From Kiritimatiellia bacterium (GTDB taxonomy: Bacteria > Verrucomicrobiota > Kiritimatiellia > UBA8416): a DNA stretch of 42,760 bases. Every line of letters starts with the position of its first letter. Position 1 is the stretch's first letter. The notes under the pieces are model-generated. The model had not been told where the DNA came from and searched no databases. It worked only from the letters and a program-made list of their open reading frames with translations. The stretch spans positions 1 to 42,760 of the forward strand of contig SKVN01000072.1 of NCBI GenBank assembly GCA_007129405.1, in the 5' to 3' direction. A program made the position numbers and the translations under genes. Positions 16,475 through 32,708 of the stretch are shown in pieces.

Positions 16475-17233
16475 TCAATCATCCTTTGTTTTTCTTTGAT
16501 ATAAAGCAATGACGGGAGAACCCAGCCATCTCGTTAAGCCACAGAGTCTGGCAACTCTTTCCATGAGTTGACTCAGGCGTTTGCACCGTAATAAACGGTG
16601 CAATGCCATGGGGAGGAAGAACTGTTTGTATGTTGCAACACGTGCAAAGCCTTGTTTGTAAAAAACCTGGTCTACTTCTTTATGGCGGAAAGAGCGCCAA
16701 TAGCGCGTGTTTTTTTCAACTTTCTTTTTGGCATCAAACAATGCAGGGGCTATCGCGTTAATACTTTGCGAGGTTGGGTAGTCTAACAGGACATAGGTAC
16801 GGGAAACTTTGCAAAGTTGTTCAACCAGACGTTCCCATTCCTTGCAGTGTGTTAATAAGCGAAAGGATGACACCAGATGAAAGTGTTTGTGGGGGAAGGG
16901 GAGTTGGAGTAAATCTGCTGCTATATAGCTGCAATTCGGATGCTGAAGGGCCTTCTCTAGCCGCGTGCCAGGCGTAGGGGCACTGCCTACGACCATGACT
17001 TCGTGGTCTTTTTCAAGATAAACATGTGTCAACTGTGCATGTCCGCCGCCGACATCCAGAATGGTGTGTACATTCTTTGTGCATGCAAGTACATGTCGTG
17101 TTCCCTGCTCTTGCACCCAAAGGAGCCATTGCCCTGACGGACCGGCGAAGCGGGTCGCATAATCATCAGATGCCGTCTCAATGTCGGCCAGGGGAGGCGG
17201 TATATTTGGCTGGCGATCCGTTTTCTTGCTCAT
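16475..17233 (-). CDS. Class I SAM-dependent methyltransferase
   Basis: ILDVGGGHAQ and ADLLQLPF motifs. AGGAG SD. Confidence 0.85.
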   Translation of the reverse strand: MSKKTDRQPNIPPPLADIETASDDYATRFAGPSGQWLLWVQEQGTRHVLACTKNVHTILDVGGGHAQLTHVYLEKDHEVMVVGSAPTPGTRLEKALQHPNCSYIAADLLQLPFPHKHFHLVSSFRLLTHCKEWERLVEQLCKVSRTYVLLDYPTSQSINAIAPALFDAKKKVEKNTRYWRSFRHKEVDQVFYKQGFARVATYKQFFLPMALHRLLRCKRLSQLMERVARLCGLTRWLGSPVIALYQRKTKDD

Positions 17234-17432
17234 TTGGTTTTTCTCCTATTCTTACACCCATCATCTCAAAACTGGCCGCAACATGTTTGCGTGATTCTGT
17301 AGCGAGAGTACTCAAGTGTGTGTCGATTGGAACCCCAGCCCGCGGCCTTGAAAAATCATCAAAAGAGGTAGGCGTTGCTATCGGGCAAAAGCGTTGTTGG
17401 TCGCGATCACGTGTAGATCTTTCTTTCATGTA

Positions 17433-18422
17433 TTACAACAGGTTATGTTCTCGATACCAAGTGCCCATTTGGGATAGCGCCTCAAAAGGTGTGATATGTG
17501 GTATGTAGCCTATTAACTCGCGGGCTTTGGAATCGTCGTAGGCACGATGCTTGGTAAAGAAATCTACACGGCGCGGATATAATGGTGGGGTAATGCCCAT
17601 ACGCTTGCAAATCCTGTCGCAGAGATAGGCCGCTATTTTCACAGGAAGGACAGGTATGTGCAACCGGGGTTGCGGAGCATCAAGAATCTGGCAGATATTC
17701 TCTACCATTCGATTGAGTGAAATGGATTCCGGTCCGGCAAGAATGAAAATTTGACCCTCGGCGTTCTTGTTTTCGGCTGCTTGGATGAATCCTTGTGCCA
17801 AATCATCAACGTGTACAAAGTGGTAGTGGTGATTGCCCTTTCCTATCATGACGAAACGGTGTCGATGAATAGCGCGAAACAGTTTGAGAAAGCGGGTGTC
17901 GCCGGGCCCGCATATGGCGGTTGGACGTATGATGGTGACGGGAAGATCGTGTGTTTGCCCCCAATGCAATACAAGGTTTTCGCCTTCCAGCTTGGTCTCC
18001 TGATACCAGTCGCCGGGCCGGAAAGGCGCATTTTCCTTGGCAGGGGCATCGGGATCGATCCAGCCGTGTACACCTGCTGTGCTGCAGTGTACAAAACGTT
18101 TCACGCCAGCGGTCGTGGCTTTTTCTAATATACGCCGTGTACCGTTGACATTGATATTATGAAAAGCCTCTCGATTCGCACCTTCCTGCCGATACATGGC
18201 GGCAATATGGAACACCGTATCGACATTTTCAAAGTCGGCTAGGTTGATGGCTTCATCCTGCCCGATATCGCCGCGCACGATTTGAACATCAAGACCTTCT
18301 AATCGCTCCGTGGATGCCCCGGGGCGGACCATGGCCTTGACTCGATAGCCATGCAGAACAAGATTGCGACAAAGATTGCTTCCGGTAAACCCTCCGGCTC
18401 CGGTCACGATGGCCTGCTGCAT
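17433..18422 (-). CDS. NAD-dependent epimerase/dehydratase (extended SDR)
   Basis: VTGAGGFTG, FHIAA, NVNGT, HCST, YQETK (YxxxK), HVDD. GGAG SD before ATG 18422. Confidence 0.92.
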   Translation of the reverse strand: MQQAIVTGAGGFTGSNLCRNLVLHGYRVKAMVRPGASTERLEGLDVQIVRGDIGQDEAINLADFENVDTVFHIAAMYRQEGANREAFHNINVNGTRRILEKATTAGVKRFVHCSTAGVHGWIDPDAPAKENAPFRPGDWYQETKLEGENLVLHWGQTHDLPVTIIRPTAICGPGDTRFLKLFRAIHRHRFVMIGKGNHHYHFVHVDDLAQGFIQAAENKNAEGQIFILAGPESISLNRMVENICQILDAPQPRLHIPVLPVKIAAYLCDRICKRMGITPPLYPRRVDFFTKHRAYDDSKARELIGYIPHITPFEALSQMGTWYREHNLL

Positions 18423-18595
18423 AAATGTTGACTCCAAAGATTCACTGTTCATGACAACATTTGTCATAAAAGACTACGATGCCATATTCAATCATGCCGT
18501 GCATCCTAAGGCAAAACACCTTGCTGGTGCAAACTAAGTATTCCTTTCGCATCGTCTTTTTGATATGTCACTCTTTTGAAAGTGAGCATTTTGTT

Positions 18596-19771
18596 ATGGC
18601 GGGCGATAATCAGCGAATCTTGTTTATTGTTTCACAACCATTTTTTCAATGGCGGGGTTCTCCCATTCGTGTGGGGTTTGATGTGCAGGCACTTGCAGAA
18701 TTAGGGTATACCGTTGATTTGCTTGTGCCACCTTTCGGAGACGATCGTGTGGTGCCCGGTGTTTGTGTTCATCGTGTTCGTCATATTCCCTGGGTACGCA
18801 GTCTGCCAATAGGCCCTTCGTTTCCTAAGCTGTTGTTTGATTGTCTGCTTTATTTGCGTGCCCGCGCACTATTACGTCAACATGATTTCGCTGTTCTCCA
18901 TGGGGTGGAAGATGCAGGCGCGATTTGTGCTTTGTTGGCCAAACGAGCCAAGGCAAAATTTGTTTTTGAAAAGCATTCGGATCCTCGATCCTACCGAAAT
19001 GGTTTTGTTCGGAATGTTCTAATGGGGGTATATGCTTTTGTTGAACGCAGAATGATTCGCAGTGCTGATGCTGTAATTGGTACGGGGCCGGAATTAGCAA
19101 AATATGCAGCGCAGGTGTGTCCTGATAAGCTCGTAGTGGAGATAGCCGATATTCCCTCATCGTTGGAGGGGAGTACGCCTGAAACTGCGGCTTTGGCGCG
19201 CCAACGGTTCGTGCAAAAAACGACGGATATTTTAATTACATATGTTGGTTCGTTCGCGGTGTATCAAGGCATTGATCTCCTATTTGAAAGCATATCGTTT
19301 GTTTGTGCATCATCACCGGATGCCCGTTTTTTAATCATCGGCGGAGACCCCGCGCAGATTGCCAAGCGTAAACAGGCTTTAGAGGCCGCAGGTTGTGCAG
19401 ACCGTGTCTATTTTGCAGGGTTGATTTCACCGGATGCCTTGCCGGCGGTACTTGCTGGCTCGGATATTCTTTTGTCGCCACGCATTGCTGGCGCAAACAC
19501 GCCCCTGAAGATATTGGATTATCTCAAAGCGTGTCGACCGATTGTTGCAACGGAAAATGCGGCTAATCGGCAGATATTAGATGAGGCAACAGCGGTTTTT
19601 GCGTCGCCTGATCCGCAAAGCTATGCCGCTGCGATATTGCGCTTGATTGGCGATGCCGCTTTGCGTCAGAAGTTGTCTGCCGGCGGGCAATCGTTAATCG
19701 ATACGAAATATAATTTTGTAAACTTCAAGCAGGAACTTTTTGCCATCTATCGTCAATGGAGGGAAGAATGA
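18596..19771 (+). CDS. Glycosyltransferase family 4
   Basis: GT-B features YVGSFAVYQGID, DILLSPR, NTPLKILDYL, PIVAT. Confidence 0.88.
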   Translation: MAGDNQRILFIVSQPFFQWRGSPIRVGFDVQALAELGYTVDLLVPPFGDDRVVPGVCVHRVRHIPWVRSLPIGPSFPKLLFDCLLYLRARALLRQHDFAVLHGVEDAGAICALLAKRAKAKFVFEKHSDPRSYRNGFVRNVLMGVYAFVERRMIRSADAVIGTGPELAKYAAQVCPDKLVVEIADIPSSLEGSTPETAALARQRFVQKTTDILITYVGSFAVYQGIDLLFESISFVCASSPDARFLIIGGDPAQIAKRKQALEAAGCADRVYFAGLISPDALPAVLAGSDILLSPRIAGANTPLKILDYLKACRPIVATENAANRQILDEATAVFASPDPQSYAAAILRLIGDAALRQKLSAGGQSLIDTKYNFVNFKQELFAIYRQWREE

Positions 19772-22335
19772 GTTGTGTTGCCAAGAAGATTTTTGTGCCG
19801 GTCTGTGTGGCATTTGTTATCGCGTTTGTTTCTGGTGTGATAACCACTTGGCCACTGGCGCGGCATGCGGGGGAGGGGATTTCTGCTTTACATCGTGCTG
19901 AACATGGGAGTTTACGTATTTCCATTCCTGGCGATCATCTTCAGTTGATGTATTTTTTTCAATTGATGCGCGATTTTGTTGCCGGTGAAACACCATGGTT
20001 TCATAATCTTTATGAATTTAATGAGGGGGATGACGCGGCGCGTTATCGTGTTGATTTTTATTATGTCCCATTTTCGCTGGTATTCAGTGCGGTTGATCTT
20101 TTGACTGGGAATGCTGCGTTAGCGTGGAATGTTGCCGGATTCGTATCCTTGTGGCTTGGTACATTGGGTGTTTTTTTACTGGTACGGCGGTTTACATCTC
20201 ATTGCTGGGTTGTGGTCGCTGCTACGGTGGCCGGAACCGTGCTGCCATACCGCCTAATCACGTTTTTGCATGGAAGCCCGACAGGTTTTGGCATTGCATA
20301 TGTTCCTTTTATGCTGCTTGGTCTTGACTATGCCATTCGTGCGAAAAAAGTGGCGGGCGGTTTGCTTGCCGGACTCGTATTTTTTCTGGCAGAATGGGCC
20401 GATCTGCATGTGTATTTCTTTCTGGCCTTGGTTACGCCTTTCTGGTGTGTGTTTGTCTATTTATACGAAGGCTTTTCATTTGATCGTAAACGTATTCGTA
20501 AGATATTTGTTGCGTTACTTCCGCTCTTGTTTTTTGTTTTCGCAGCGGGTGTCCGGGTTCTTCTTATCCGTGAGGTACTCAAGGGGTCCGTGATGGCGGA
20601 CGGACGAACGGTAACAGAGGTTGCTCAATTTTCTCCTTCTCCCGATTCCTATTGGTCGCTCAATCCGGATCATCCGAGCAGCTATGTCTACTTGACCTTT
20701 TTGATTCCGCTGATGATTGTTACTGGATTTGCGCATGCAATTCTAGGGGTGCGAAGGGATTTTTCACGTGAGAGATTGCTGCATTTTCTGTTATTATGCG
20801 GTTTGCTGGTTGGTATCGGCTGTATTTTGTTGCTTGGGCTAGGACCGCGGATGCCGCTTCCGCGGTCGGATCGCTTGTGGGAACTCTTTGTTCGTGTCGT
20901 GCGTCCGTATCGAATGATTCGTCAACCTGCGAAAGTACAGGTTTTGCTCCCGTCTTTGTTGGCAGTTTGCATAGCCTTGCCATTTTCCTCTGTCTATTTG
21001 AAGAAAGCAACTGTGCGAAGTAACTGGATTTTCGGGGTTCTGGCATTGCTTTTGCTCGGGGAGGTTGCATGGCGAATTGACCCTGCTATTTCCGTTTTGG
21101 ATCAAGAGCAAAAGGCCTATGCTGCCGTGGTTGCCGATGCGAAAGCAAACGGTGAGGTTCCGCGCGCCGTCGCCGTTGTCCTCTGGCCGGGTGATTCTCA
21201 CTGGTCTTCTCTAAACCAGTATTATGCTATGAAGTACCGAATACGCATGCTCAACGGCTATAGTCCAATTGTGTCGGCCACGTATTTTGATGATGTCTTT
21301 TTGCGGTTTTTCAGTTTGAATCGTGGATACGCCAGTGATGCGCAGTTGGATGAGCTGCTTGCCATGGGCATTCGCCATATTCTGATTCATGAAGATGCCT
21401 TTCCCGAAAGAGTGAGCCCTTTTGGCGTGGCGCAGACATTGAAGGGATTCTTGGAGAATCCGCGTGTGCAATTTTTGCATCAGGATCGGGCTGTTTGGGC
21501 TTTTGCCATTCTTGATCGTGCCGATGAGGCGCCTCATACTTCGATAGCGTGGAATACCGCTTCGGTGACGTTCAGCTGGCCTGCAACGTGGCTGGTGGCA
21601 GAAAACGTTTCGATTCTAGGGGATAGCCATGATGGATACGACGGTCCGTTCTTGCGTTTATCAAAGCCAGAAGCATACATTGAAATTCCAGACTGGGGTA
21701 TTCATTATGTCGAAAGTTTACGATTATCGGCACGTGTACGCGGACAAGGTTTGCTTGCATTGCAGATGCATATAGATGGAGAATTTTACGAGCAGGAATA
21801 TGCGGTTGATGCGGATACGTGGCAATGGGTGGATCTTCCGTATCCTGCATTTGAGAGTTTTCAAACCAATCTACAGGGGCGATTACGTGTCCTGCAAGGG
21901 GGGCTGGATGTTGATCATCTCTATGTGGCACAGGGAGAGGTGCCCGCAGATATGTCTGTCGGGGATGTTTTTCGGATCCCTTCACCAACATTGTTCCGTG
22001 CGGGGTACACAGATTTATCGGAAAATGCGGTCATTTTCCGCCCGGAATTGGTTCCATCTGCATACGTTTTGTATGGACCGCGCCTTCCGTTGCCAGTGGG
22101 TGACTATGTTTTTCGGCTTATCTACGAGTCCGAAGTAGAGGGAAGCATAGGAGAAATCGGTTTTCGTGATCCGGGTCGACATGATAACCCGGAAACGGTT
22201 GTTGTTATGGGGGCAGATGGTGTTGTGGAAATGCGATATAAACAAGTTGCCAATCTTCCCGTGACCATAGAGTTTTTCTACAATCGATCTGGTACTGTAT
22301 TGATTCGGGATCTTGAAATTGAACGCCTGGAATAG
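19768..22335 (+). CDS. Large polytopic membrane protein, GT-C/YfhO-like, with C-terminal beta-rich extracytoplasmic domains
   Basis: ATGA overlap with the GT4 gene. GDHLQ acidic motif after TM1, about 11 TM segments, MIRQPAK, MLNGYSP, then a soluble tail with LYGPRLPLPVGDY. Confidence 0.65.
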   Translation: MSCVAKKIFVPVCVAFVIAFVSGVITTWPLARHAGEGISALHRAEHGSLRISIPGDHLQLMYFFQLMRDFVAGETPWFHNLYEFNEGDDAARYRVDFYYVPFSLVFSAVDLLTGNAALAWNVAGFVSLWLGTLGVFLLVRRFTSHCWVVVAATVAGTVLPYRLITFLHGSPTGFGIAYVPFMLLGLDYAIRAKKVAGGLLAGLVFFLAEWADLHVYFFLALVTPFWCVFVYLYEGFSFDRKRIRKIFVALLPLLFFVFAAGVRVLLIREVLKGSVMADGRTVTEVAQFSPSPDSYWSLNPDHPSSYVYLTFLIPLMIVTGFAHAILGVRRDFSRERLLHFLLLCGLLVGIGCILLLGLGPRMPLPRSDRLWELFVRVVRPYRMIRQPAKVQVLLPSLLAVCIALPFSSVYLKKATVRSNWIFGVLALLLLGEVAWRIDPAISVLDQEQKAYAAVVADAKANGEVPRAVAVVLWPGDSHWSSLNQYYAMKYRIRMLNGYSPIVSATYFDDVFLRFFSLNRGYASDAQLDELLAMGIRHILIHEDAFPERVSPFGVAQTLKGFLENPRVQFLHQDRAVWAFAILDRADEAPHTSIAWNTASVTFSWPATWLVAENVSILGDSHDGYDGPFLRLSKPEAYIEIPDWGIHYVESLRLSARVRGQGLLALQMHIDGEFYEQEYAVDADTWQWVDLPYPAFESFQTNLQGRLRVLQGGLDVDHLYVAQGEVPADMSVGDVFRIPSPTLFRAGYTDLSENAVIFRPELVPSAYVLYGPRLPLPVGDYVFRLIYESEVEGSIGEIGFRDPGRHDNPETVVVMGADGVVEMRYKQVANLPVTIEFFYNRSGTVLIRDLEIERLE

Positions 22336-22355
22336 CAGCTAGCATACCCCGAATA

Positions 22356-22910
22356 TTAATTGGTTGGTCGCCACTGACCGATAAAACCTCGCTGTGGGCT
22401 GTCTGTCATAATGGCCCGTTCGACCGTGTAGTTGCCTGCGATGCTTAAAATTTCATTGCCATTCAAGAAAATGCGCAATGCGCCTTCGCTAGACTGCACG
22501 CGCCATCGCGCGACACCTGAAATCGGCACGCTGAATCGTCCATCCCAAAAACCGCCACCAGGTCCTTCTAGTAAGATTCGTGATGGATCCCTGGCTCCTC
22601 CGCCTGTATCCATCGTCATAATCAATAAGCGGGAAAAGCCTTGCCCTTCAACACGAGCAATAATCCATTCAGCATCTCCTGGTGTATTCAGTCCTGGAGG
22701 AACTTCAACATTTTGGGTCTCCCATTTTACCACACCGTTAGAAGCTTCGATTATGCCTACATCGCGCCCATCACGCCATTCGCTACCGGTCGCAGAACCA
22801 TTGGCCGTGGTTTCATCGGTTTGCGGCGCAGTGTCAGGATCGGCGAGTTCACAACCGCTGGACATCGCGAGACCGCATAGTAGTAGTACAAAAAATATTG
22901 GAAATTTCAT
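22356..22910 (-). CDS. Hypothetical lipoprotein
   Basis: MKFPIFFVLLLCGLAMSSG-C lipobox, Thr/Asp-rich linker, beta-rich body. GGAG SD. Confidence 0.7.
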   Translation of the reverse strand: MKFPIFFVLLLCGLAMSSGCELADPDTAPQTDETTANGSATGSEWRDGRDVGIIEASNGVVKWETQNVEVPPGLNTPGDAEWIIARVEGQGFSRLLIMTMDTGGGARDPSRILLEGPGGGFWDGRFSVPISGVARWRVQSSEGALRIFLNGNEILSIAGNYTVERAIMTDSPQRGFIGQWRPTN

Positions 22911-23198
22911 GATCATTCTCTCCGTTGTTCAAAAAATCTTGATTTCAAGGCGAATTCTTTAAACCTACCAGTTCTTATGATGAAGTGCAACTATGGAGTT
23001 TCATGTATACGCGCACGAATGCTGTGTGCTACGGTCTTTTCTTTTCCGTTCCACACCGGTGGACTAGGCTTTTTATGGATTTTGTTTTTAGTGGTATTTG
23101 TTTGTTTCCTGCATCAAGTAACGTATCATTATTGCGCTGCATGCTGATGTAGTTGACATACATGAACGCATTTTGATGAGGTGCGATTGAGGGGTTGC

Positions 23199-24083
23199 AT
23201 GGCCGATGACAATACATATGCGAATTTGACTGCTATGGACAGGGTGCCGTTGGAGACGGCGTCGCGTTATTACTATTTCAAGCCTATGGCTGTTTTTTTT
23301 AATGCGTTGCATTTGCGTGCATTCCAAACTGCTGGCCTCTGCTGGAAGACACCCGTTTTAGACATCGGTTGCAGTGACGGTTCGTATGGCTTGCTTATGG
23401 CGGAGGTGCTAGGTGCACCAGATCATATCCTCGGTATTGATGTTGATGAAAAGGCGATCTCTTGTGCGCGCACGGAAGCGAAAATGCTATACGATGACAT
23501 GCTCGTCGCGAGTGCTGCGCAGTTGCCTTTTGATGATAACGCCTTTGAAATGATCATCGTTAATGCGAGTCTGGTTTCCATTCAACCTGGTTTGGAAGCA
23601 TCCATGCGCGAGGCATATCGCGTATTGAAAGCCGGCGGACGTTTTTACGCGACGGTTTGCACGGATGCCTATGAAAAACAGTATTGGATTGCGCGTCTGT
23701 TGCGTGGACTGGGGCTGGGGGCTCTTGCGCGCCATTACATGCACGCGATGAACCGGAGAATGCAGCAAGCGCATCTGCTCTCATGGGAAAACTGGATACA
23801 ATTATTTGAGGACAACGGTTTCAGGGTAGTCCAGCACTTTGGTTTTTTGCCTTTGCGTCTGGTTCCGCTATGGAGTTTTCTGGCGTGGACACCGTTGCGT
23901 ATTATTGGCATATCTAAACGTATTCCCTGGCCTTGGCTTCATAAAAAAATGGCTGTGTTGTGGACACATGTGTTTGCAGGTATTTACACAAGGACTGAAA
24001 GCAAGTTGGATTCCCAAAAGAGCGGGTATATCCTCATCGAGGCCATCAAAGTTTCACCGGAGCACTCTGTTCCGATTTCTTGA
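23199..24083 (+). CDS. Class I SAM-dependent methyltransferase
   Basis: VLDIGCSDG, GIDVD, ASAAQLPFDDNAF, YRVLKAGGRF. GAGGGG SD. Confidence 0.9.
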   Translation: MADDNTYANLTAMDRVPLETASRYYYFKPMAVFFNALHLRAFQTAGLCWKTPVLDIGCSDGSYGLLMAEVLGAPDHILGIDVDEKAISCARTEAKMLYDDMLVASAAQLPFDDNAFEMIIVNASLVSIQPGLEASMREAYRVLKAGGRFYATVCTDAYEKQYWIARLLRGLGLGALARHYMHAMNRRMQQAHLLSWENWIQLFEDNGFRVVQHFGFLPLRLVPLWSFLAWTPLRIIGISKRIPWPWLHKKMAVLWTHVFAGIYTRTESKLDSQKSGYILIEAIKVSPEHSVPIS

Positions 24084-24125
24084 GCAAACGCTTTTTCCCA
24101 TAATGGATTTGCAGATATCCATACG

Positions 24126-25535
24126 TCACCTTGCGTGATATGCATACAAGTGCTTCATTTGATAGACTAGTGCGCCGGATACGACGATAAGAAGTGCTGC
24201 AGTTATAGGGAGTGGCAAACCCGCCAGGTGGTGGATGGTAGGTATTGCTGCGACTGCAAGGCAGGGCAGAATGAGAGGAATGATTCGGCGGGCGGTATGG
24301 CGAATGGGACTGCACAATAGTTGTGTCATTCCTAATGCGCACAAAACGGCCTCGCTGGCAACAGTAGCGATGGCTGCACCCAAGGCTCCTAAACGAGGTA
24401 TGAGTATTAGGTTGATCAGAATATTCGTACCTGACGTTATTAGCAGGAGTGGTGTTAACGTTATTTCACGCTCCGTGGTCAGCAGGTATGTCTCTGTCAC
24501 CGTGTTAAACATGTTGAGAGCAAGCCCGGGAAGCAGCACGGCGAGCAGGCTGACGGAAACAAGAAAGGCGTTGCCAAATAGCAGGGGCATGGCAATCGGT
24601 TGAATAAATCCGGCAATGATCAGGCATGGTAGAATCAAGACAAAGAGCGTGCGTAGAGCTTTGACGATCTGTTTGGGTAATTGGTTCGGATCCGTTGCAT
24701 GGTACTTGGCAAATCTGGTGAAGGCAACGAAGAAGACAACCCTGGGTAGAGCCGCAAAAATTTCCATGACGCGATATGCAGCTCCGTAGAAGCCGACTTC
24801 CGCATCAATTGCGAGTGCTTTAAGCATGATGATATCGATCTGATAGTAGACGATCCACAGGAGCCCATGCAGTGCGAATGGTAACGCTTTTTTGTAGGTA
24901 TTCCGCCAGCTTTCCGGCTGTTGATTATGGGCGAGCGGGAAATGTCGTGCTAGGTAAAGGCCGGTGCCGGCATTGTCGATCAATCTGGATAGAACAAGCG
25001 CTACTGTGGTCAGGATGAGGCTGCCCGTTATAAACAAGATGATGCTGGTTAGCACCACGGTAAAAAGACGTTCGATAAAAACACTGACAGATTCTTTATG
25101 AAACCAGTTCTTTCCTTTCATAATGCCGCGCCAGCTCATTTTGATGCTTCGGCAGAGCTCGGCTGCAATCATAAGATAGCATAGAATCATACCCTCACGG
25201 GAGAATCCTATCCAGTGTGTGATGAGAGGCAGAAGCGCAAAGATCGGAATGGTGTTTAATATTTGGATGAGCAAAAAGCGCAAAGTCGGTCTCGTTCCGT
25301 CTTGCGGGTTTGCTGCCACTGTGCGTGTCAGCAACATCGGCAACCCGAATTGTATAAAAACGCCTAAGATACCGCCTAAGGCGACAGCAGCCGAAAAAAC
25401 GCCATACTGTTCCGGTCCTACCACGCGGGCAATGAAAACATAGAGTATGAACATGAGGCCCAGCGTGGATTCACCCAATAGCGCGTATATATAGGAAAAA
25501 TCTTGTTTTCCGAGCCATGTAATCCATTTTTTCAT
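24126..25535 (-). CDS. Oligosaccharide flippase (Wzx/MOP family)
   Basis: ARVVGPEQYGVFS, QFGLP, YYQIDIIML, EVGFYGAAYR, NLILIPRLGALGAAIATVASE. Confidence 0.9.
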   Translation of the reverse strand: MKKWITWLGKQDFSYIYALLGESTLGLMFILYVFIARVVGPEQYGVFSAAVALGGILGVFIQFGLPMLLTRTVAANPQDGTRPTLRFLLIQILNTIPIFALLPLITHWIGFSREGMILCYLMIAAELCRSIKMSWRGIMKGKNWFHKESVSVFIERLFTVVLTSIILFITGSLILTTVALVLSRLIDNAGTGLYLARHFPLAHNQQPESWRNTYKKALPFALHGLLWIVYYQIDIIMLKALAIDAEVGFYGAAYRVMEIFAALPRVVFFVAFTRFAKYHATDPNQLPKQIVKALRTLFVLILPCLIIAGFIQPIAMPLLFGNAFLVSVSLLAVLLPGLALNMFNTVTETYLLTTEREITLTPLLLITSGTNILINLILIPRLGALGAAIATVASEAVLCALGMTQLLCSPIRHTARRIIPLILPCLAVAAIPTIHHLAGLPLPITAALLIVVSGALVYQMKHLYAYHAR

Positions 25536-25782
25536 GCTGAAATTACGTAGATGTTGTGCGTTGGGAATGGGCGACCAAGGCGTCGTTTGCGAAAGGTATG
25601 TTGCGAGCAACGAGCGGGTCTGATGCAAGCGCCTGACAGTTGCACCTGTTTTCATCAGAAGTAAGCAGCCGATGCGGGGCAATCTGGCTACGCACTCTAT
25701 ATGCAAACGATTGCAAAGCATGTTGGATCATACCTGGTATCGTTTTATGATTCCGCTGATCGGTGAGGTGCAGCATAGATAC

Positions 25783-26754
25783 CTATGATTCGGATGATGG
25801 GTGTAAAAAAAGATGTGGTTCCGGTGGTATGATTCGCGGGCTAATGGTTTCCTGGAATCTTGGGAATTGTATAAACAGGAGGATAGAGCACAGGGCAAAG
25901 GTTGTGAAGACGGTAATCATCAGGCCTTTTTGTCGCCAGAGATGTTCTGGGAATTGCACGGGACTATTGGGTTTGAAGCCAATGCGAAAATAGTATGCCA
26001 TCGTGAATGCCACAGCCGGCGCGGCTAGAATGAGTTCCACCTTGTACCGTGCAATAAAATAGCCAGATAGTAATGCAAAGAAAGCAACATAAAACAGTAC
26101 GGAGACCAGAAGTCGCTCCTCATTGTAAAAGCCGAAGGATTTACGGTAATCTGCAGCCGTTTGTTCGTTGGCAATTGTACGGTATTCGGCAAAACGTTTG
26201 AGGGCCATGAGGAACCCCCCGAACATCCAGTAGGCGAGCAGTGCCGAGGCAGGAGGGGCCGCGCCGAAGCCTGTGCTGTACCAACCGAGCAACAATCGCA
26301 ATGGATTGTTGATTGATTCACTCAAGACATCCAAATAGGGTTTGTCTTTAGTGCGCACAGGAGGAACGTTATAAGCGCATCCTGCCACCCATAACCCCAG
26401 CAGCGCGGTAAAAAAAGGCATGCTTATCATGATTCCGAGAAGCAGGCCGGAAGCGGATAGTATGCCCCACCAAAGCCATCCCAGAGAAATCTTGACCTGC
26501 CCGCTTGGGACGGGTCGATGCTGCTTGACGGGATGGTGGCAATCTTTCGGAGCATCCAAAATCTCGTTCATGACATAATTGGAGGATGCAATCAGACACG
26601 TTGCCATAAACCCCGTCAAAATGGGTACCCACGTAAAGCTATCCCGCATCTCGGGATGAAAAAAGAAATAGAGTAATATGCCTGGAACCATGAAGATATT
26701 TTTAAACCAATGGTCAGGTCGCGCAATCTGGATATACGGGTACCATTTTTTCAT
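25783..26754 (-). CDS. UbiA-family protein, decaprenyl-phosphate phosphoribosyltransferase-like
   Basis: ARPDHWFKN, NYVMNEILDAPKDCHHPVKQHRPVPSG, KDKPYLDV, KRFAE. 4-nt overlap with the deacetylase gene. Confidence 0.85.
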   Translation of the reverse strand: MKKWYPYIQIARPDHWFKNIFMVPGILLYFFFHPEMRDSFTWVPILTGFMATCLIASSNYVMNEILDAPKDCHHPVKQHRPVPSGQVKISLGWLWWGILSASGLLLGIMISMPFFTALLGLWVAGCAYNVPPVRTKDKPYLDVLSESINNPLRLLLGWYSTGFGAAPPASALLAYWMFGGFLMALKRFAEYRTIANEQTAADYRKSFGFYNEERLLVSVLFYVAFFALLSGYFIARYKVELILAAPAVAFTMAYYFRIGFKPNSPVQFPEHLWRQKGLMITVFTTFALCSILLFIQFPRFQETISPRIIPPEPHLFLHPSSES

Positions 26755-27635
26755 TTTACCTTTCCGGATAAGAGTTTCGCGTAACTGTTCTTGTAGCGAG
26801 TTCTGAGGATTTTGTACAGTGATTCCCTGCCAACACCTGGGAGGCGACGAACAAATTCACCACTGATGCGGACGATTTTGTGTGGGTCATGACCCGGTGT
26901 AATAATGGGGAGGTGCGGCAAGGTTCCTGTCCAGAATGCTGTGTATCCAGCTTGCACGGCAATATCAATCGTATGGTTTTTACTGTAGTAGCAGGGCCAG
27001 GCAAGATGTTGTATGGGTTTATGGAAGTGTTCTTCGAGTGTTTTACGAGCCAGTAGGAGATCATCGTACATGTTGCGTGGCACGGCACGTCGTCCTTCCA
27101 GGTGCTCGTGAGAAACACCGGTCAAGGGTAGCGGAGTAGGCCAGGTTTGTAGCGATCGATGCTCCCATGTATGGGATTGCAAGTCGACAAGGCCGGATTG
27201 ATGCATTTCCGTCAGTTCTTCCCATGTGCAAGGCCGATTTGCATGCCAGGGTTCTTCGCTTGCAACGCGGTGAAGTCCGGGGGCAACAAATAGCACGGCG
27301 GTTTGCTGATATTGCTGCAACAAGGGATACGCCACCCGGTAAAAGTTATCTGCGCCGTCGTCAAATGTGAGCACAATGCTGTTTTTCGCAAGTGCTTTCT
27401 TTCCGTTTATCCAATCCAGCAAATCGTCTGCCGTCGTTGTGTGGTAGCCATTCTGTTCCAGAAAAAGCAAGTCAGCTTCAAACGATTGTTTTTCAACGAG
27501 ATGGTAACAAAAGACGGGAATGGCCTCCTGTAAGGGGAAAGGTCTACGAGCCGTGACAAAATACGGTAGGCCGCCCGTAGCGAGAGCATGTAATTCAGGG
27601 CCGTTTTTTTTGATTCTGTCGGAAAGTAAGCTCAT
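26751..27635 (-). CDS. Polysaccharide deacetylase (CE4/NodB, IcaB/PgaB-like)
   Basis: PVFCYH, LTFDDG, TWEELTEM, QSHTWEH, LAWP. Confidence 0.88.
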   Translation of the reverse strand: MSLLSDRIKKNGPELHALATGGLPYFVTARRPFPLQEAIPVFCYHLVEKQSFEADLLFLEQNGYHTTTADDLLDWINGKKALAKNSIVLTFDDGADNFYRVAYPLLQQYQQTAVLFVAPGLHRVASEEPWHANRPCTWEELTEMHQSGLVDLQSHTWEHRSLQTWPTPLPLTGVSHEHLEGRRAVPRNMYDDLLLARKTLEEHFHKPIQHLAWPCYYSKNHTIDIAVQAGYTAFWTGTLPHLPIITPGHDPHKIVRISGEFVRRLPGVGRESLYKILRTRYKNSYAKLLSGKVK

Positions 27636-28807
27636 GTTTCTTGCTTATGTTTTGCATCCGTGTTTGCTGATCTTGTGTCACAAAAGGCGCGAAAAATATT
27701 GCGGTACAAGTCTAGCAGCTTCTCAATATGTTGATCGATCGCAAATGAAGCCGATCTTCTGCGGGCCTCGCATGCAAATTGCTGGTTCTTTTCCTTGTCA
27801 AATATGAGCTCTCTGGTGGCCTCGCATAGAGCTGTCAAATCTCCCTTGGGAACGAGAATACCACATGTATTATGTGTATTATGCACGACGACCTCCTTCA
27901 GACCGCCGGTTGCATAAGCAACGACCGGTACTCCGGCAGCAAGGCTTTCCATGGCACTGAGCCCGAGTCCCTCACTGTATGATGGCATAAGCATTACCGC
28001 AGCCAATGTCAATAAATCGGGAATATCGCTGCGTTGCCCTGCAAAGACGACCGGCAGACCTTGTGCTTGTTCACGCAGATGTTTTTCTTCGGGCCCTTCC
28101 CCGACTATCAGCAGCCAAATCTTTGGGTTGCGAATGTGTCGTAGGACATTGATGCTGTCAGAAAATCCTTTGACCGCATGCAGTCTGCCAACAGAAATGA
28201 TTACCGTCGCATCTTCGGGTATGCCGAGTTGCTTTCTCAATTTGAGGCGTTTCGCTGGTGAGGTGGGTACACAAAACGGGGAAAGGTGCACACCATTGCG
28301 AAGAACGCTTATCGTTGCAGGTGGAGTTTTGAAATAGGCTGCTGCGAATTGGGCAACCGCGTTTGATATGGCAAGGGTCAGCTCCGACCAATGCCGCGTC
28401 AGTCGCATCATTTGACGGATGGGAACGGGCGGTGGAAGCATATCATGTAGATGTGCGATACAGGGAATCCCGGTTATACGGGCAGCGATGCGACCCGATA
28501 ATATTCCTTTCATTCCGGCACAGTGCAAAATCGCGATTTGGTCATTCCTGATGCGTTGTACGATGTCCAGAACCGCACGCGGGTCATATTTGGCGCGCTG
28601 TAAAAAAGTAACTTCGACCCCTTGTTCCTCAAGCAGTTGTGCCATCTTGTGATACCTGCGCAAAAAGACAACATGCAACTCGACCGCAGCCGATTTCTCA
28701 AGTTGTGGCAGAACATCGAGAAAATAGCGGGTTGCACCATGTATGCGGCCGCCCTCGTGACCGAGATGATCGCTTACAAAGAGAATGTGTATTGGTGATG
28801 TATCCAT
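27632..28807 (-). CDS. Glycosyltransferase family 4
   Basis: VGRLHAVKG, GQRSDIPDLL, PSYSEGLGLSAMESLAAGVPVV. Confidence 0.92.
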   Translation of the reverse strand: MDTSPIHILFVSDHLGHEGGRIHGATRYFLDVLPQLEKSAAVELHVVFLRRYHKMAQLLEEQGVEVTFLQRAKYDPRAVLDIVQRIRNDQIAILHCAGMKGILSGRIAARITGIPCIAHLHDMLPPPVPIRQMMRLTRHWSELTLAISNAVAQFAAAYFKTPPATISVLRNGVHLSPFCVPTSPAKRLKLRKQLGIPEDATVIISVGRLHAVKGFSDSINVLRHIRNPKIWLLIVGEGPEEKHLREQAQGLPVVFAGQRSDIPDLLTLAAVMLMPSYSEGLGLSAMESLAAGVPVVAYATGGLKEVVVHNTHNTCGILVPKGDLTALCEATRELIFDKEKNQQFACEARRRSASFAIDQHIEKLLDLYRNIFRAFCDTRSANTDAKHKQET

Positions 28808-28840
28808 GAATATCTGATTGGCAATCGGAAGCAACAGTAC

Positions 28841-31237
28841 CTACTGTGGAAGCGTGAAGCGTTGTTTGGCGGAGCGTGCCTGCGGTCGATAATCGTTTCC
28901 ACCTCCTGGATCATATACCCTTACCCGAACATATTCTGCTTCGGGGGGTGGGGGGGCAATAATCTTACGCACTTTCAGGATGCCTTTTTCTCTCCAGGCA
29001 GATAGATACTTTTCGTCGTGATACACTACGTTGCGTCGATACAGATTCAAGTCAAAATCATCTTGTCCCAGTAAGCTTTTCCCGTCGCTTGCCATATAGT
29101 GGACGGCCATGGCAAAGTTTCCTGGAAAATAATGCACATAGAGATCCGTGGCAAGCGTAAGCTCCTTCGATTGCGGCTCATAGGTCAAATGTGTATTCTG
29201 CATATATCCGATTGCAAAGGGGATGTCGGTCTTTTCGATCTTGTGATTCCGGTATTTTGCGGTGCTCAGATAGGCAAGCAGCAAAAGGCAGATCAGGAAA
29301 ACCAAGCGCATGGCGATCAAACATCTTTTTCCTACGGGGTTTTTATTAAAAAGTATGATCACAAAATAGCCGACCGCAAAAAGTGCTAAAGCAATCATGA
29401 TGGGAACCTGCAGACCGCTCGTTTGGTAATAGGGGACAAAAGGCGGAAACCGAATTTTCAGGATGTCGGGCCACATCGTATTTGTAACAAATCTGGCTGG
29501 ATGTACCCTCAAGTACCACATGCCCGGTTTCAGTATGGCTTCTATTCCCATAGCAATAGACATTGTCCATAATATGATGGATATGCGATTGCGCATTTGT
29601 ACTGTAAATAGGGCCGCGGTAAGTGTGACGACGGGAACAAGCGGTAACATGAAACGATTTGGTGGTGCAAATCCACCCCACCAGCACCACCACGTTCCGG
29701 TGATGATGGTCGTGGCGGCCACAACGGTACAAATCGATGAAAGCAACATGGTCCTAAAAACGAGGTTTGGATGATAGGATTTGAGTGCTCTATTGATACT
29801 GATTATGCCAGCCGGTAAAAGGAGTGTGACGGGAGCGAGCATTACAAGACCATATTCCCAGTCCAGCCAGATGCCGGGAATTCCTTGGCGCAAGGCATCA
29901 TCAAGGGGTAGAAACGACCCTAAGCTATCTGATGCAGGCAGGATTCTTCCGTAAAGTAGCATGTTAAATTTGATCATACTGAAAGCCGAAAGGGCAAAGG
30001 GCAGCGCAGGTAGAATGTAGGCCTTCCAGTTAGGCCAGAGCATAATGATACGCATGATCACAAATGGGAGACACCATAGCCCGTACTTATCCTGCAACCA
30101 GGGGGAGAGGGAAAACCATAATGAGATTTCGAGGTTCCGATACCATTTCAAATTGTTTTCGAATGCAAGGCGCAGTAGTCTGGCTACGATGAAAAACATG
30201 ATGGTTTCGGAATAAACGGCCACAGACATTACGGAAACGGGGAGCAACATCGTGCCCCCCATGCCGAATAACATAGCCATTGCCGTATTTGATGTGAGGT
30301 ATTGCACGATAATCGCGATTTCGCGGGCGGCACATGCAACAAGGATGATGAGAAACATTGCGATCCAGGCTCTGTGATAGTCTCCCATCAAGTGTCCGAT
30401 GGCATAAAAAGGTGCAATCAGAATAGATGTTCCCGGTCGATGGGTAGAGTACATTGCATCACCAAACGCTTTTGCCCGCGCCTCGTACTCGGCTGAACCG
30501 GCGCGTAAATGCGGGTTGTGGCGTGTTGGGCCACCCGCATGTTTGCCGTCCTCTCTTCTGTAAACCGAAACCGGTAAGATGTTGGTTGCAACGTTGAGAC
30601 TTTGATTCCGTACCAGGCTGTCGGCCATATAGAAATAGGCTGGTTGATCTCCCGTCAAAAGATAGTCGCGGCTATTTTCGTTTATAGGTAAGGCCACCTT
30701 GAAGAGGGCGATACTGTGGAAGAGTATCGAAAAAACGAAAACCCACAGAAAAGGATGGGGCATTCGTTGCGCAAGACCAGCAATGATTTGCGCCGTCGAT
30801 TTGAACGCATGCTGATAGACGGGAAGTATTACCCGAAAGATGAGGTGGTATAATGTCCAGATCGTGCTAAGGGGCAGGAGAAGAGGCGCGAAGGCTGTAA
30901 AGGGAGGTACGGCAAATGCAGCCAGCCAGCCAGCAATACCTGCGTAAAGCACAACACGGAAACATTTTCGAAAGGCAAAGATCGCATCCTTATGGGAAAG
31001 TTTATAGCGCAACAAAATCCATGTGAGAATTTGGAAAAGAAGGAAAACAAGCGCTTTTTGTGCGGCATACCTATATTCGCTCGTTACGATGTTTGCAAGG
31101 GCACTATGCGGATCTTGTTTCTGCGCGCCAATCCACCAGATACGCTGCAAGAGAAAGATCGGGAAACTAGAGATGGTATAAACACAAATCCATAAACAGA
31201 GACTTAGAATCCCCATTATACTGGCCTTTATTTTCAT
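28841..31237 (-). CDS. Large polytopic membrane protein, GT-C-like
   Basis: TGDQPAYFYMADSL loop motif, YSTHRPGTSILIAP, YSE, PWLQDKY, WWCWWGGFAPPNRF. GAGG SD before ATG 31237. Confidence 0.65.
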   Translation of the reverse strand: MKIKASIMGILSLCLWICVYTISSFPIFLLQRIWWIGAQKQDPHSALANIVTSEYRYAAQKALVFLLFQILTWILLRYKLSHKDAIFAFRKCFRVVLYAGIAGWLAAFAVPPFTAFAPLLLPLSTIWTLYHLIFRVILPVYQHAFKSTAQIIAGLAQRMPHPFLWVFVFSILFHSIALFKVALPINENSRDYLLTGDQPAYFYMADSLVRNQSLNVATNILPVSVYRREDGKHAGGPTRHNPHLRAGSAEYEARAKAFGDAMYSTHRPGTSILIAPFYAIGHLMGDYHRAWIAMFLIILVACAAREIAIIVQYLTSNTAMAMLFGMGGTMLLPVSVMSVAVYSETIMFFIVARLLRLAFENNLKWYRNLEISLWFSLSPWLQDKYGLWCLPFVIMRIIMLWPNWKAYILPALPFALSAFSMIKFNMLLYGRILPASDSLGSFLPLDDALRQGIPGIWLDWEYGLVMLAPVTLLLPAGIISINRALKSYHPNLVFRTMLLSSICTVVAATTIITGTWWCWWGGFAPPNRFMLPLVPVVTLTAALFTVQMRNRISIILWTMSIAMGIEAILKPGMWYLRVHPARFVTNTMWPDILKIRFPPFVPYYQTSGLQVPIMIALALFAVGYFVIILFNKNPVGKRCLIAMRLVFLICLLLLAYLSTAKYRNHKIEKTDIPFAIGYMQNTHLTYEPQSKELTLATDLYVHYFPGNFAMAVHYMASDGKSLLGQDDFDLNLYRRNVVYHDEKYLSAWREKGILKVRKIIAPPPPEAEYVRVRVYDPGGGNDYRPQARSAKQRFTLPQ

Positions 31238-31296
31238 ATTATTCCTCAATGTCCGGTTATCTCTTATCGTCATATGCCGTTGCATGCGACCGAGAA

Positions 31297-31932
31297 TTAA
31301 CGGATTGATATTCGCATCATAAATGATATGGCGATAAGTCGCATACCTTCTGGTGTCGGGTGCAACCCATCGACGCTTATCAAATCTCGGTTATTTCCAA
31401 AGTCACGTTCAATATCAGCGAGGCGGATACCGTTTTCACGTGCTATTTTTCGGATACGTTGGTTGAGCAGCTTGGTTTCATTATTATGCGCGTCGTCACG
31501 ATAGGCAGGTAGCAGTGTGCCAATGACGGGAATCATTTGTAATTCACGGGCACGATTGGCGATCGCGAGAAGATGGTTGGGCGTGTTCTGCGTTTGTCGA
31601 TAGGATACATCATTGGCACCAAACAGGATCAGCACATACCCAGGTTTGGAACGACGTACGTGACTCTCAAACATGTTGAGACCTTCCCAACTTAATGCAC
31701 CGGATCTTCCGCCGTTTATAACATGGAGTCCAGTCATCTGCTCTAATTGGTACGGATAGGATTGATTCGCTAGTACACCGTATCCTGCGGTGATACTATC
31801 ACCTACTGCAAGGACCAGATTGGGATCGTTATCGCCAAAATCGTGGCTTTTCTCCTTGCTTTCGCAACCAGAAAACAAAAAAACAAATGTCCAAATGGCA
31901 ACAAAAAGCAGCGATCGTCTTAGCACGGTCAT
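31297..31932 (-). CDS. SGNH/GDSL hydrolase lipoprotein
   Basis: Lipobox FLFSG-C; blocks GDSITAG, NGGRSG, GAND, DGLHP. Confidence 0.9.
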   Translation of the reverse strand: MTVLRRSLLFVAIWTFVFLFSGCESKEKSHDFGDNDPNLVLAVGDSITAGYGVLANQSYPYQLEQMTGLHVINGGRSGALSWEGLNMFESHVRRSKPGYVLILFGANDVSYRQTQNTPNHLLAIANRARELQMIPVIGTLLPAYRDDAHNNETKLLNQRIRKIARENGIRLADIERDFGNNRDLISVDGLHPTPEGMRLIAISFMMRISIR

Positions 31933-31970
31933 GTTACATACTCTTTCTCGATGTTGTTTTTGTTATACAT

Positions 31971-32708
31971 TTATCTCCTCCGAATGGGGCATGCGGGGGT
32001 ACCAGCACAGAAGGTGTGAGCTGGTAGATCTTGCAGTACTACGGAGCCAGCACCAACCACGCAATGCGACCCGATTGTTACACCATCCGTGATCGTGGTG
32101 TGGGCTGCCAGCCAACAATTGGAACCAATGCGGGTTGGCCCCTTGGACAACATCCCGGATTGTTGCGCAAATGGTGCGGCATCCTTGGATGTGTTATAGC
32201 TTCCCCCGTTTAGCAAATAACAGAAGGCTGCGATCATGGTGCCTTCACCGATTTCCAAATCACCAGATGAGAAGATTTGGCAGTTGGATGAGATGTTGAC
32301 GTTATCGCCGATGCGGATATTGCCGTTTTTCGTGTAGAGAATGGTGTTTCTACCAATGTAGACGTTATCACCGATATAAATACCTTTGTTGGTATCTCCC
32401 TTGGCGTCAAGCACAACGCCATCATCAATGATGACATTAGAGCCTATCTGAATTTTGTGGGGGTGACGCACCGTAAGGTTACGACCAAAAATGGTTTTGG
32501 AACCGGTTTGGGCAAATAACCCGGGATAGAAAATATTTCGTAAAGCCAAACCCGCTGCACCAGATATGGAACCAAAAAGAAAAGTTGTCGATTCCGTTCT
32601 TAATGCGCGTCCCAATGAAACATTTCCGAAACAAAGTTTTCGGTAGGTGTACCACGCTGATTTGCCGCGAGCTTCTTTTATTTTGTATTCAGTGTTATCT
32701 TCAGACAT
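31971..32708 (-). CDS. Hexapeptide-repeat (LbH) acyltransferase
   Basis: IQIGSNVII, IYIGDNVYIG, IRIGDNVNI, IGSNCWL, GAGSVV, GTPA. Confidence 0.92.
   Translation of the reverse strand: MSEDNTEYKIKEARGKSAWYTYRKLCFGNVSLGRALRTESTTFLFGSISGAAGLALRNIFYPGLFAQTGSKTIFGRNLTVRHPHKIQIGSNVIIDDGVVLDAKGDTNKGIYIGDNVYIGRNTILYTKNGNIRIGDNVNISSNCQIFSSGDLEIGEGTMIAAFCYLLNGGSYNTSKDAAPFAQQSGMLSKGPTRIGSNCWLAAHTTITDGVTIGSHCVVGAGSVVLQDLPAHTFCAGTPACPIRRR

Follow-up and report, generated by a model that had tools for sequence, protein, structure and literature searches.

A 42,760-nucleotide stretch of DNA from a Kiritimatiellia bacterium (GTDB Verrucomicrobiota; Kiritimatiellia; UBA8416; GenBank assembly GCA_007129405.1, contig SKVN01000072.1, positions 1-42,760), referred to here as the window, carries at positions 16475-32708 a locus of 13 long open reading frames (ORFs) in mixed orientation, anchored by a large membrane protein that we call A. 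A first-pass annotation had proposed there a candidate undescribed envelope glycosylation system of the PVC group; this is still the best reading, and it is strengthened by co-occurrence across genomes. Specifically, A and four neighbours, namely a glycosyltransferase (GT4a), an extended short-chain dehydrogenase/reductase (SDR), a long left-handed beta-helix protein (LbH) and a methyltransferase (MT1), go together in presence and absence among the Kiritimatiellia genomes tested, and we consider it very probable that this core is a genuine pathway of envelope glycosylation by GT-C enzymes, whatever its exact kind. Our favoured reading, to which we give slightly less than an even chance and which leans on predicted structures, is that a flipped lipid-linked glycan is moved en bloc by A to an envelope acceptor, probably exported proteins.

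The distribution of A is wide within its order, where it was found in 55 of 61 genomes (own genome counted; one of the 55 is a weak partial match) and in 26 of the 27 of high quality, mostly as one full-length copy per genome. In a sample of the phylum it was found in 38/200 genomes (36 of the same class and two outside it, with five in-class families lacking it), and its named relatives are Kiritimatiellia/PVC records. The partners were followed in a panel of 80 genomes picked by A status (59 A-positive and 21 A-negative; two more A-positive genomes were dropped for a size limit), using single window proteins as queries with preset thresholds, so that absence means not found with that query. 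LbH orthologues occur in 59/59 A-positive and 0/21 A-negative genomes (the weakest positive, at 1.8e-31, lies near the threshold of 1e-30), those of the SDR in 58/59 and 0/21, of GT4a in 58/59 and 1/21 and of MT1 in 46/59 and 0/21. As controls, a glycosyltransferase of family GT2 from contig C140, the one of the genome's 14 GT2 matches that was profiled across the panel, gave 26/59 against 1/21, and exosortase gave 57/59 against 21/21, counts by which exosortase does not track A. The 21 A-negative genomes are kin from six families and may represent just a few losses; a separate genome within the order (G038) lacks all five core genes.

No Pfam or NCBIfam family was matched by A (E<=0.05), PF02516 (STT3) included, and PF02516 had 0 matches in the source genome and was present in just 2/61 genomes of the order; none of 26 A-family proteins matched PF09586 (YfhO) or PF19830 (DUF6311), with one weak DUF6541 match under the cut-off, no GT-C family was returned by Pfam for 25 relatives of A, and PDB sequence searches with A1 and A3 yielded chance matches only. 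The assignment comes from structure prediction. An AlphaFold2 model built from 80 sequences (pLDDT 94.7) divides into a predicted membrane domain (residues ~1-445), a periplasmic alpha/beta domain (~446-590) and two beta-sandwiches (603-727 and, tentatively, ~730-859), the first of which appears to be a CBM35/CBM6-like carbohydrate-binding module (CBM); its residues 603-726 align to such domains with a VIA Z of 13.9 and a root-mean-square deviation (rmsd) of 2.5. Foldseek ranked AftD first (E 4.8e-11), then AglB, STT3 and DPY19. By VIA, STT3 aligned with Z 19.6 (rmsd 5.2, 466 aligned, model residues 5-588) and AftD with Z 18.6 (rmsd 5.0, 471 aligned), and across STT3, AglB and PglB (Z 19.6-14.8) the membrane and periplasmic domains were both aligned. 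In the ESM Atlas the nearest entries are DUF6311/YfhO clusters, with TM scores of 0.55-0.57 by query and <=0.80 by target (the DUF6311-bearing ones). The model of A thus superposes on solved GT-C enzymes, which assigns A a GT-C fold at the level of prediction. As for conservation, D216 and R389 are kept in 80/80 sequences, D60 in 79/80 and E288 in 69/80, and these acidic and basic residues are of a putatively catalytic type; W477-P-G-D480 and N500-G-Y502 are almost invariant, and the best-conserved part is the periplasmic alpha/beta domain (0.62 vs 0.48 for the membrane part).

The second large membrane protein of the locus, B, also models as a GT-C enzyme, as the first-pass annotation had suggested for both. 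Its AlphaFold2 model (140 sequences, pLDDT 94.0) shows an ALG12/ArnT-like core at ~170-600, a C-terminal beta-sandwich and, tentatively, extra N-terminal helices. Foldseek matched ArnT best (E 1.3e-4) and also EmbC, and VIA gave ALG12 a Z of 24.4 (rmsd 4.1, 331 aligned) and ArnT one of 22.0, a superposition on solved enzymes that again supports a GT-C fold as modelled. B belongs to a wide family (1517 representatives, consensus GDEPHY), in which D213 and R544 are invariant in 140/140 relatives and Pfam returned one PMT_2 match for 46 relatives. A conserved Asp follows the first core transmembrane helix in both proteins (D60 in A, D213 in B, the position being judged from secondary structure), but a comparison of their profiles finds little resemblance (hhalign probability 40.6), and therefore A and B are not recent paralogues.

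These folds bear directly on a more ordinary possibility, a variable cluster for O-antigen or exopolysaccharide with genes that belong to no special common pathway. A Wzx flippase, GT4 enzymes and modifying enzymes are typical of such clusters, Wza, Wzc, phosphoglycosyltransferase (PGT) and Wzy genes are present in the genome, and gene order around A is not kept beyond the genus. However, neither A nor B matches Wzy_C (PF04932), a family found six times elsewhere in the genome, no Wzy or WaaL structure is among the fold matches listed for either protein (by itself no exclusion), both model as GT-C rather than as non-glycosyltransferase folds, and the five core genes co-vary across genomes even if scattered. 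An ordinary cluster is thus largely refuted by the predicted folds, and we regard it as very improbable.

A also aligns with ArnT (Z 14.7), and another alternative is that A glycosylates a lipid acceptor, either lipid A or a membrane glycolipid, in an ArnT-like manner with a tailored lipid-linked sugar. The locus encodes a CE4 deacetylase, which recalls donor deacylation of the ArnD type, and LpxC was found in two of three A-positive genomes tested. Against this, LpxC also occurs in the A-negative genome G083, A is nearer to STT3 and AftD than to ArnT, and the size of its periplasmic alpha/beta and CBM-like domains is what a macromolecular acceptor would suggest, all of which leaves a lipid acceptor improbable.

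The 13 ORFs are as follows; Pfam and NCBIfam back every soluble-enzyme label of the first-pass annotation, and A, B and the 186-aa ORF are without a family match at E<=0.05.

16475..17233, minus strand: MT1, class I SAM methyltransferase (PF13649, E 1e-8); core-associated
17433..18467, minus strand: extended SDR epimerase/dehydratase (PF01370, E 5e-43; motifs TGAGGFTG and YQETK), true start likely at 18422; core
18479..19771, plus strand: GT4a glycosyltransferase (PF13692/PF00534), true start likely at 18596, divergent from the SDR gene; core
19756..22335, plus strand: A, 859 aa, GT-C by the fold of its AlphaFold2 model; core anchor
22356..22916, minus strand: predicted lipoprotein, 186 aa, from sequence, no Pfam match; accessory
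23181..24083, plus strand: MT2, class I methyltransferase (PF13847, E 3e-16); accessory
24126..25721, minus strand: Wzx-type flippase (PF01943, E 3e-26)
25783..26754, minus strand: UbiA-family protein resembling polyprenyl-phosphate phosphoribosyltransferases (PPPRS/DPPR synthases), best PDB match 8J8J; accessory
26751..27635, minus strand: CE4 polysaccharide deacetylase (PF01522, E 1e-20; motifs TFDDG and HTWEH)
27632..28834, minus strand: GT4b glycosyltransferase (PF00534, E 5e-36)
28841..31285, minus strand: B, 814 aa, GT-C by the fold of its AlphaFold2 model; accessory
31297..31932, minus strand: SGNH/GDSL esterase-type predicted lipoprotein (PF13472, E 1e-25); accessory
31971..32708, minus strand: LbH protein of the sugar O-acetyltransferase type (PF00132); core

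The source genome (1.97 Mb, 76% complete, the window being its contig C187) has a GC content of 0.483 in the locus and of 0.512 and 0.507 in the flanks. Promoter-like sites are at chance level (25 observed vs 25.9 expected), and repeat scans found nothing exceeding chance. A single RNA run checked for expression gave two short pieces and is uninformative. The SGNH protein begins with a hydrophobic stretch and a Cys, the 186-aa predicted lipoprotein has a Thr/Ala/Asp/Ser-rich linker downstream of its Cys and is a candidate glycan acceptor, and a hydropathy scan gave no hydrophobic segment in the CE4 deacetylase. A PAS/HATPase/receiver hybrid kinase at 32970-34604, divergent from LbH and in the same place in the locus of a sister species, is a possible regulator.

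The 16-kb locus is not one unit, and consists of a core layer and an accessory layer. While the first-pass annotation regarded it as built around two GT-C proteins, only A is core: full-length B was found in 1/61 genomes of the order (the source genome), and the sister-species locus (L011) has a different PMT_2-type GT-C in its place. That locus retains MT1, SDR, GT4a, A, Wzx (65% identical, directly adjoining A), CE4, GT4b (49% identical) and LbH, and is without the 186-aa lipoprotein, MT2, UbiA and SGNH. B is therefore a swappable accessory and UbiA is patchy, its orthologues occurring in 13/61 genomes at E<=1e-20, including one weak match. The case for a fixed B-UbiA pair is weak: both are missing from L011, but UbiA occurs in 12 other genomes without full-length B, and the single metagenome locus with B (L177) shows no UbiA and no core gene.

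The best match of UbiA among solved structures is the mycobacterial decaprenyl-phosphate phosphoribosyltransferase 8J8J (E 9e-8), and its NCBIfam score of 85.7 bits lies under the cut-off of 234. PPPRS enzymes are described with the motifs N-D-x-x-D-x-x-x-D and R-x-x-E (PMC11127046); the present protein reads N63-E64-x-x-D67-x-x-x-D71 and K186-R-x-x-E190, and so keeps five of the six residues (N63, D67, D71, R187, E190), with a Glu at the second position that is also found in all 11 orthologues checked. No phosphatase or small flippase was detected by Pfam/NCBIfam among the 13 ORFs (the rest of the genome was not searched for a phosphatase), and the DprE1 family (PF04030) was not found in the 76% complete source genome or in 5/5 UbiA-bearing relatives. 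An arabinose donor is on this account rejected for now, and the sequence evidence makes polyprenyl-phosphoribose (or its 5-phosphate) the likely product.

The LbH protein complicates the tailoring chemistry. LbH O-acetyltransferases of the Maa/LacA type carry a catalytic His in an external loop. Orthologues of the present protein are divided between a His type (GGxH, 11/22) and a Tyr type (GGEY, 11/22), which possibly reflects two chemistries or a non-catalytic form, and the protein of the window has Tyr171, as do 120/120 of its closest relatives. Acetyl transfer is uncertain because a Tyr stands where half of the orthologues have His, and the 'acylated' glycan of the first-pass annotation is accordingly doubtful.

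Export was examined in 97 loci around A, with exporter families assigned from representatives. A directly adjoins an exporter gene in 28 of them (13 Wzx-like, nine UPF0104/LPG_synthase_TM and six of a Wzm/Wzt cluster). The 63 loci of >=12 kb hold an exporter in 31 cases, LbH in 20, a further GT-C-like family in 16 (two by PMT_2 match, the others presumed from hydropathy), the SDR in 14 and UbiA in three; in many loci A stands by itself, which means that the core genes are frequently dispersed. In one locus (L013:8738-12241) a UPF0104/LPG_synthase_TM domain is naturally fused to the N-terminus of A, with LbH flanking and UbiA two genes off. UPF0104 was found in 54/59 A-positive and 4/21 A-negative genomes; searches for it came up empty in the source genome and in the two same-genus genomes, where Wzx lies near A. 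Several arrangements were seen beside these counts: a complete genome record (L071:6176-16184) has a compact same-strand run of an asnB-like gene, LbH, SDR, A, UPF0104, an unknown gene, GT4a and MT1, and AsnB-type amidotransferases recur close to core genes in other genomes; tandem duplicates of A lie upstream of Wzm/Wzt-cluster genes in L147 and L142; L104 holds two copies of A, and in L146 A appears as two ORFs.

Standard export and priming genes lie elsewhere. The first-pass annotation saw no Wzz/Wzc, Wza, Wzm/Wzt or initiating PGT, and indeed no ORF of the locus matches any of these (three other ORFs of the window were also scanned), but other contigs supply several of them. One contig (C163; L031:1432-14613) encodes a PEP-CTERM-like ORF, a 1354-aa exosortase-TPR fusion, Wza, a Wzc-like protein and two PGT (Bac_transf) genes, C176 a Wzy_C and Wzc-like pair, C164 a WecA-like gene and C194 a GtrA-family gene; in total the genome has, on contigs other than the window, six Wzy_C proteins, two exosortases and Wzc-like proteins. 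Across the order, many genomes have exosortase matches that fall in open frames of ~1350-1500 aa. The missing export genes say little alone, since Wza, Wzc-like proteins, PGTs, a WecA-like enzyme and Wzy_C are encoded on these other contigs, and initiators located away from the glycan locus are described as common (PMC11127046). Priming enzymes are thus available in the genome, with no dedicated initiator identified: PGT and Wzy_C were found in all five genomes tested, the A-negative G083 among them, and neither the C140 GT2 nor the WecA-like protein is supported as a dedicated initiator by occurrence counts. On C140 (L045:5974-10728) a GT2 gene is followed by a DUF2304 fusion of 776 aa, weakly matching ALG3 (GT-C), and by a DegT-type aminotransferase; together these probably form another system, distinct from the locus, for the transfer of a lipid-linked amino sugar. 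Two further clusters were noted: a teichoic-acid-like capsule cluster on C34 (L035:1-8356), with Wzy_C, GT2, GT4, a cytidylyltransferase, a TagF-like glycerophosphotransferase, WecG and exosortase, and on C161 (L033:2612-4090) the oxygenase domain of a nitric oxide synthase (PF02898, E 1e-121), with a radical SAM gene and two GT2 genes next to it. Such a domain is a surprise here, since the cultured type species of the lineage is obligately anaerobic.

In the favoured reading, a PGT or WecA-like enzyme encoded elsewhere would prime a short polyprenyl-linked glycan assembled on the cytoplasmic face; SDR, LbH and MT1 would produce or modify a conserved sugar for addition by GT4a; a flippase (Wzx in the window) would move the glycan outward; accessory GT-C enzymes such as B might add optional periplasmic branches, perhaps, as a tentative suggestion, of ribofuranose from the UbiA product; and A would carry out the final transfer en bloc. 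En-bloc transfer is favoured because A is mostly single-copy and lineage-wide, GT4a is a fixed partner (the tested GT2 and UbiA being found in a minority of A-positive and of order genomes, respectively), the exporters are interchangeable, and the YfhO family contains protein transferases, namely the O-glycosyltransferases PgtC2 and PgfM1/M2 (PMC12041528).

Several observations weigh against this reading. The acceptor-binding motif of STT3 is WWDxG. A instead has WPGD (W477-P-G-D480, past a beta-strand of the periplasmic domain), the equivalence in position being presumed. The sequon N-X-S/T has an observed/expected ratio of 0.99 in 260 heuristically chosen exported proteins, a comparison of low power, and of 1.28 in 36 lipoproteins, in which a control motif reaches 1.24. 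WecA-like genes occur in 4/5 A-positive and 4/5 A-negative genomes, and no initiator tracks the core, with one of the genome's 14 GT2 matches profiled; 32 of the 63 loci of >=12 kb have no exporter near A; and adjacency to exporters cannot separate the mechanisms, because GT136 also sits in a Wzm/Wzt locus. The characterised enzymes of the YfhO family use single-sugar donors, as reported in PMC12041528 and PMC8035078. Finally, the CBM-like domains of AftD, EmbC and GT136 are reported to bind the acceptor polysaccharide (PMC11127046), and the modelled CBM-like domains of A, together with AftD as top Foldseek match, point to a glycan acceptor.

The last of these points lead to a competing explanation, that A is an AftD/YfhO/GT136-like transferase of single sugars. 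Its donor would be a monosaccharide on polyprenyl phosphate, flipped by UPF0104 or Wzx, and its acceptor a CBM-recognised glycan (an O-chain, a lipopolysaccharide (LPS) core or another envelope polymer) that it would branch or extend; the locus would then serve to decorate a polymer whose synthesis depends on Wzy or ABC genes. Teichoic acids are among the acceptors of YfhO enzymes (PMC8035078), UPF0104 is a predicted flippase of glycosylation pathways that in archaea is fused to AglD (PMC5898192), here UPF0104 occurs in most A-positive and few A-negative genomes and is once fused to A, and the source genome has six Wzy_C proteins. On the other hand, no synthase of a monosaccharide donor was found to track A (UbiA and one GT2 were tested). 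Side-chain decorators are usually patchy and serotype-specific, unlike A, which is near-universal in its families with fixed cytoplasmic partners that include a GT4. We consider decoration by single sugars a real possibility, with clearly less than an even chance.

Known systems resemble the present one in parts. The nearest neighbours of A in predicted structure and features are the YfhO/DUF6311 GT-C enzymes (YfhO of B. subtilis, S. aureus and Listeria; streptococcal PgtC2 and PgfM1/M2), a family that, like A, has large GT-C proteins with extracytoplasmic domains and is described as holding polymer and protein glycosyltransferases; unlike those systems, A lacks a PF09586 or PF19830 match, has no GT-A partner found to track it, and combines a Gram-negative host with fixed GT4, SDR, LbH and methyltransferase partners. 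The mycobacterial AftD/Emb enzymes with the DPPR synthase Rv3806c share the top Foldseek match, the CBM-like domains and a DPPR-synthase-like UbiA in the locus, but identity is 12-15%, PF04030 was not found in the source genome or in the five UbiA-bearing relatives, and UbiA occurs in a minority of genomes with A. STT3, AglB and PglB (GT66) give A its highest VIA Z over membrane and periplasmic domains. The PglF/PglD/PglA/PglK of the Campylobacter pgl pathway are resembled by SDR, LbH, GT4 and flippase here; however, A has neither PF02516 nor WWDxG, no sequon enrichment was seen, and neither an aminotransferase nor a PGT was seen among its fixed partners.

The three-component pentofuranose systems of Citrobacter youngae O1/O2 comprise the PPPRS ORF15, the flippase ORF14, the GT136 ORF12 and the SDR ORF13, to which a role as pentose epimerase is given (PMC11127046). 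They likewise bring a PPPRS-type UbiA, a GT-C with CBM and an SDR together in one Gram-negative glycan locus, but here UbiA has no HAD phosphatase domain and carries Glu at the second motif position, the locus has no small four-helix flippase, and the SDR tracks A and not UbiA, so that its main function is probably not that of a pentose epimerase like ORF13. The general O-glycosylation of Bacteroidota is described (PMC12871550) as a lineage-wide system in which one part is conserved and a Wzx/GT locus (LFG) varies, with methyl and acetyl tailoring and an unidentified transferase; set beside it by description only, the present system is alike in its lineage-wide occurrence, its conserved and variable parts and its putative methyl/acetyl tailoring. 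The motif of Bacteroidota O-glycosylation is D-S/T-(A/I/L/V/M/T). It is not enriched in the predicted exported proteins here (observed/expected 0.86).

In the literature searched (few subscription journals, with supplements such as Fig. S11 of PMC11127046 outside its scope), neither the gene set nor glycosylation in Kiritimatiellia is described, and the available part of the description of K. glycovorans names only exopolymer, peptidoglycan and LPS genes (PMC5148204). Two records not labelled as metagenome-assembled genomes carry A, namely 'Kiritimatiellota bacterium B12222' (the complete genome L071) and 'B1221' (L119), and with the compact core of the former the question looks bench-testable. 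In the boldest reading, which we consider rather unlikely, A would be the first of a family of oligosaccharyltransferases for general protein glycosylation that is separate from STT3/PglB and PglL, and would serve a class-wide glycoproteome; the conserved core glycan would leave by any of three unrelated flippase types and be diversified in the periplasm by exchangeable GT-C enzymes, among other things through ribofuranose taken from polyprenyl-phosphoribose. Lipid-linked GT-C pathways are already known; the present one stands out by its unclassified anchor enzyme and by the fixed partners that accompany it in many families of a class with few cultured members. The predicted flippase role of UPF0104 could be tested directly through its fusion to A and through Wzx beside A in a genus in which UPF0104 was not found. 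Were A a protein transferase, it would represent a further route to general bacterial protein glycosylation, and were it a branching enzyme, it would mark an unknown conserved envelope glycan.

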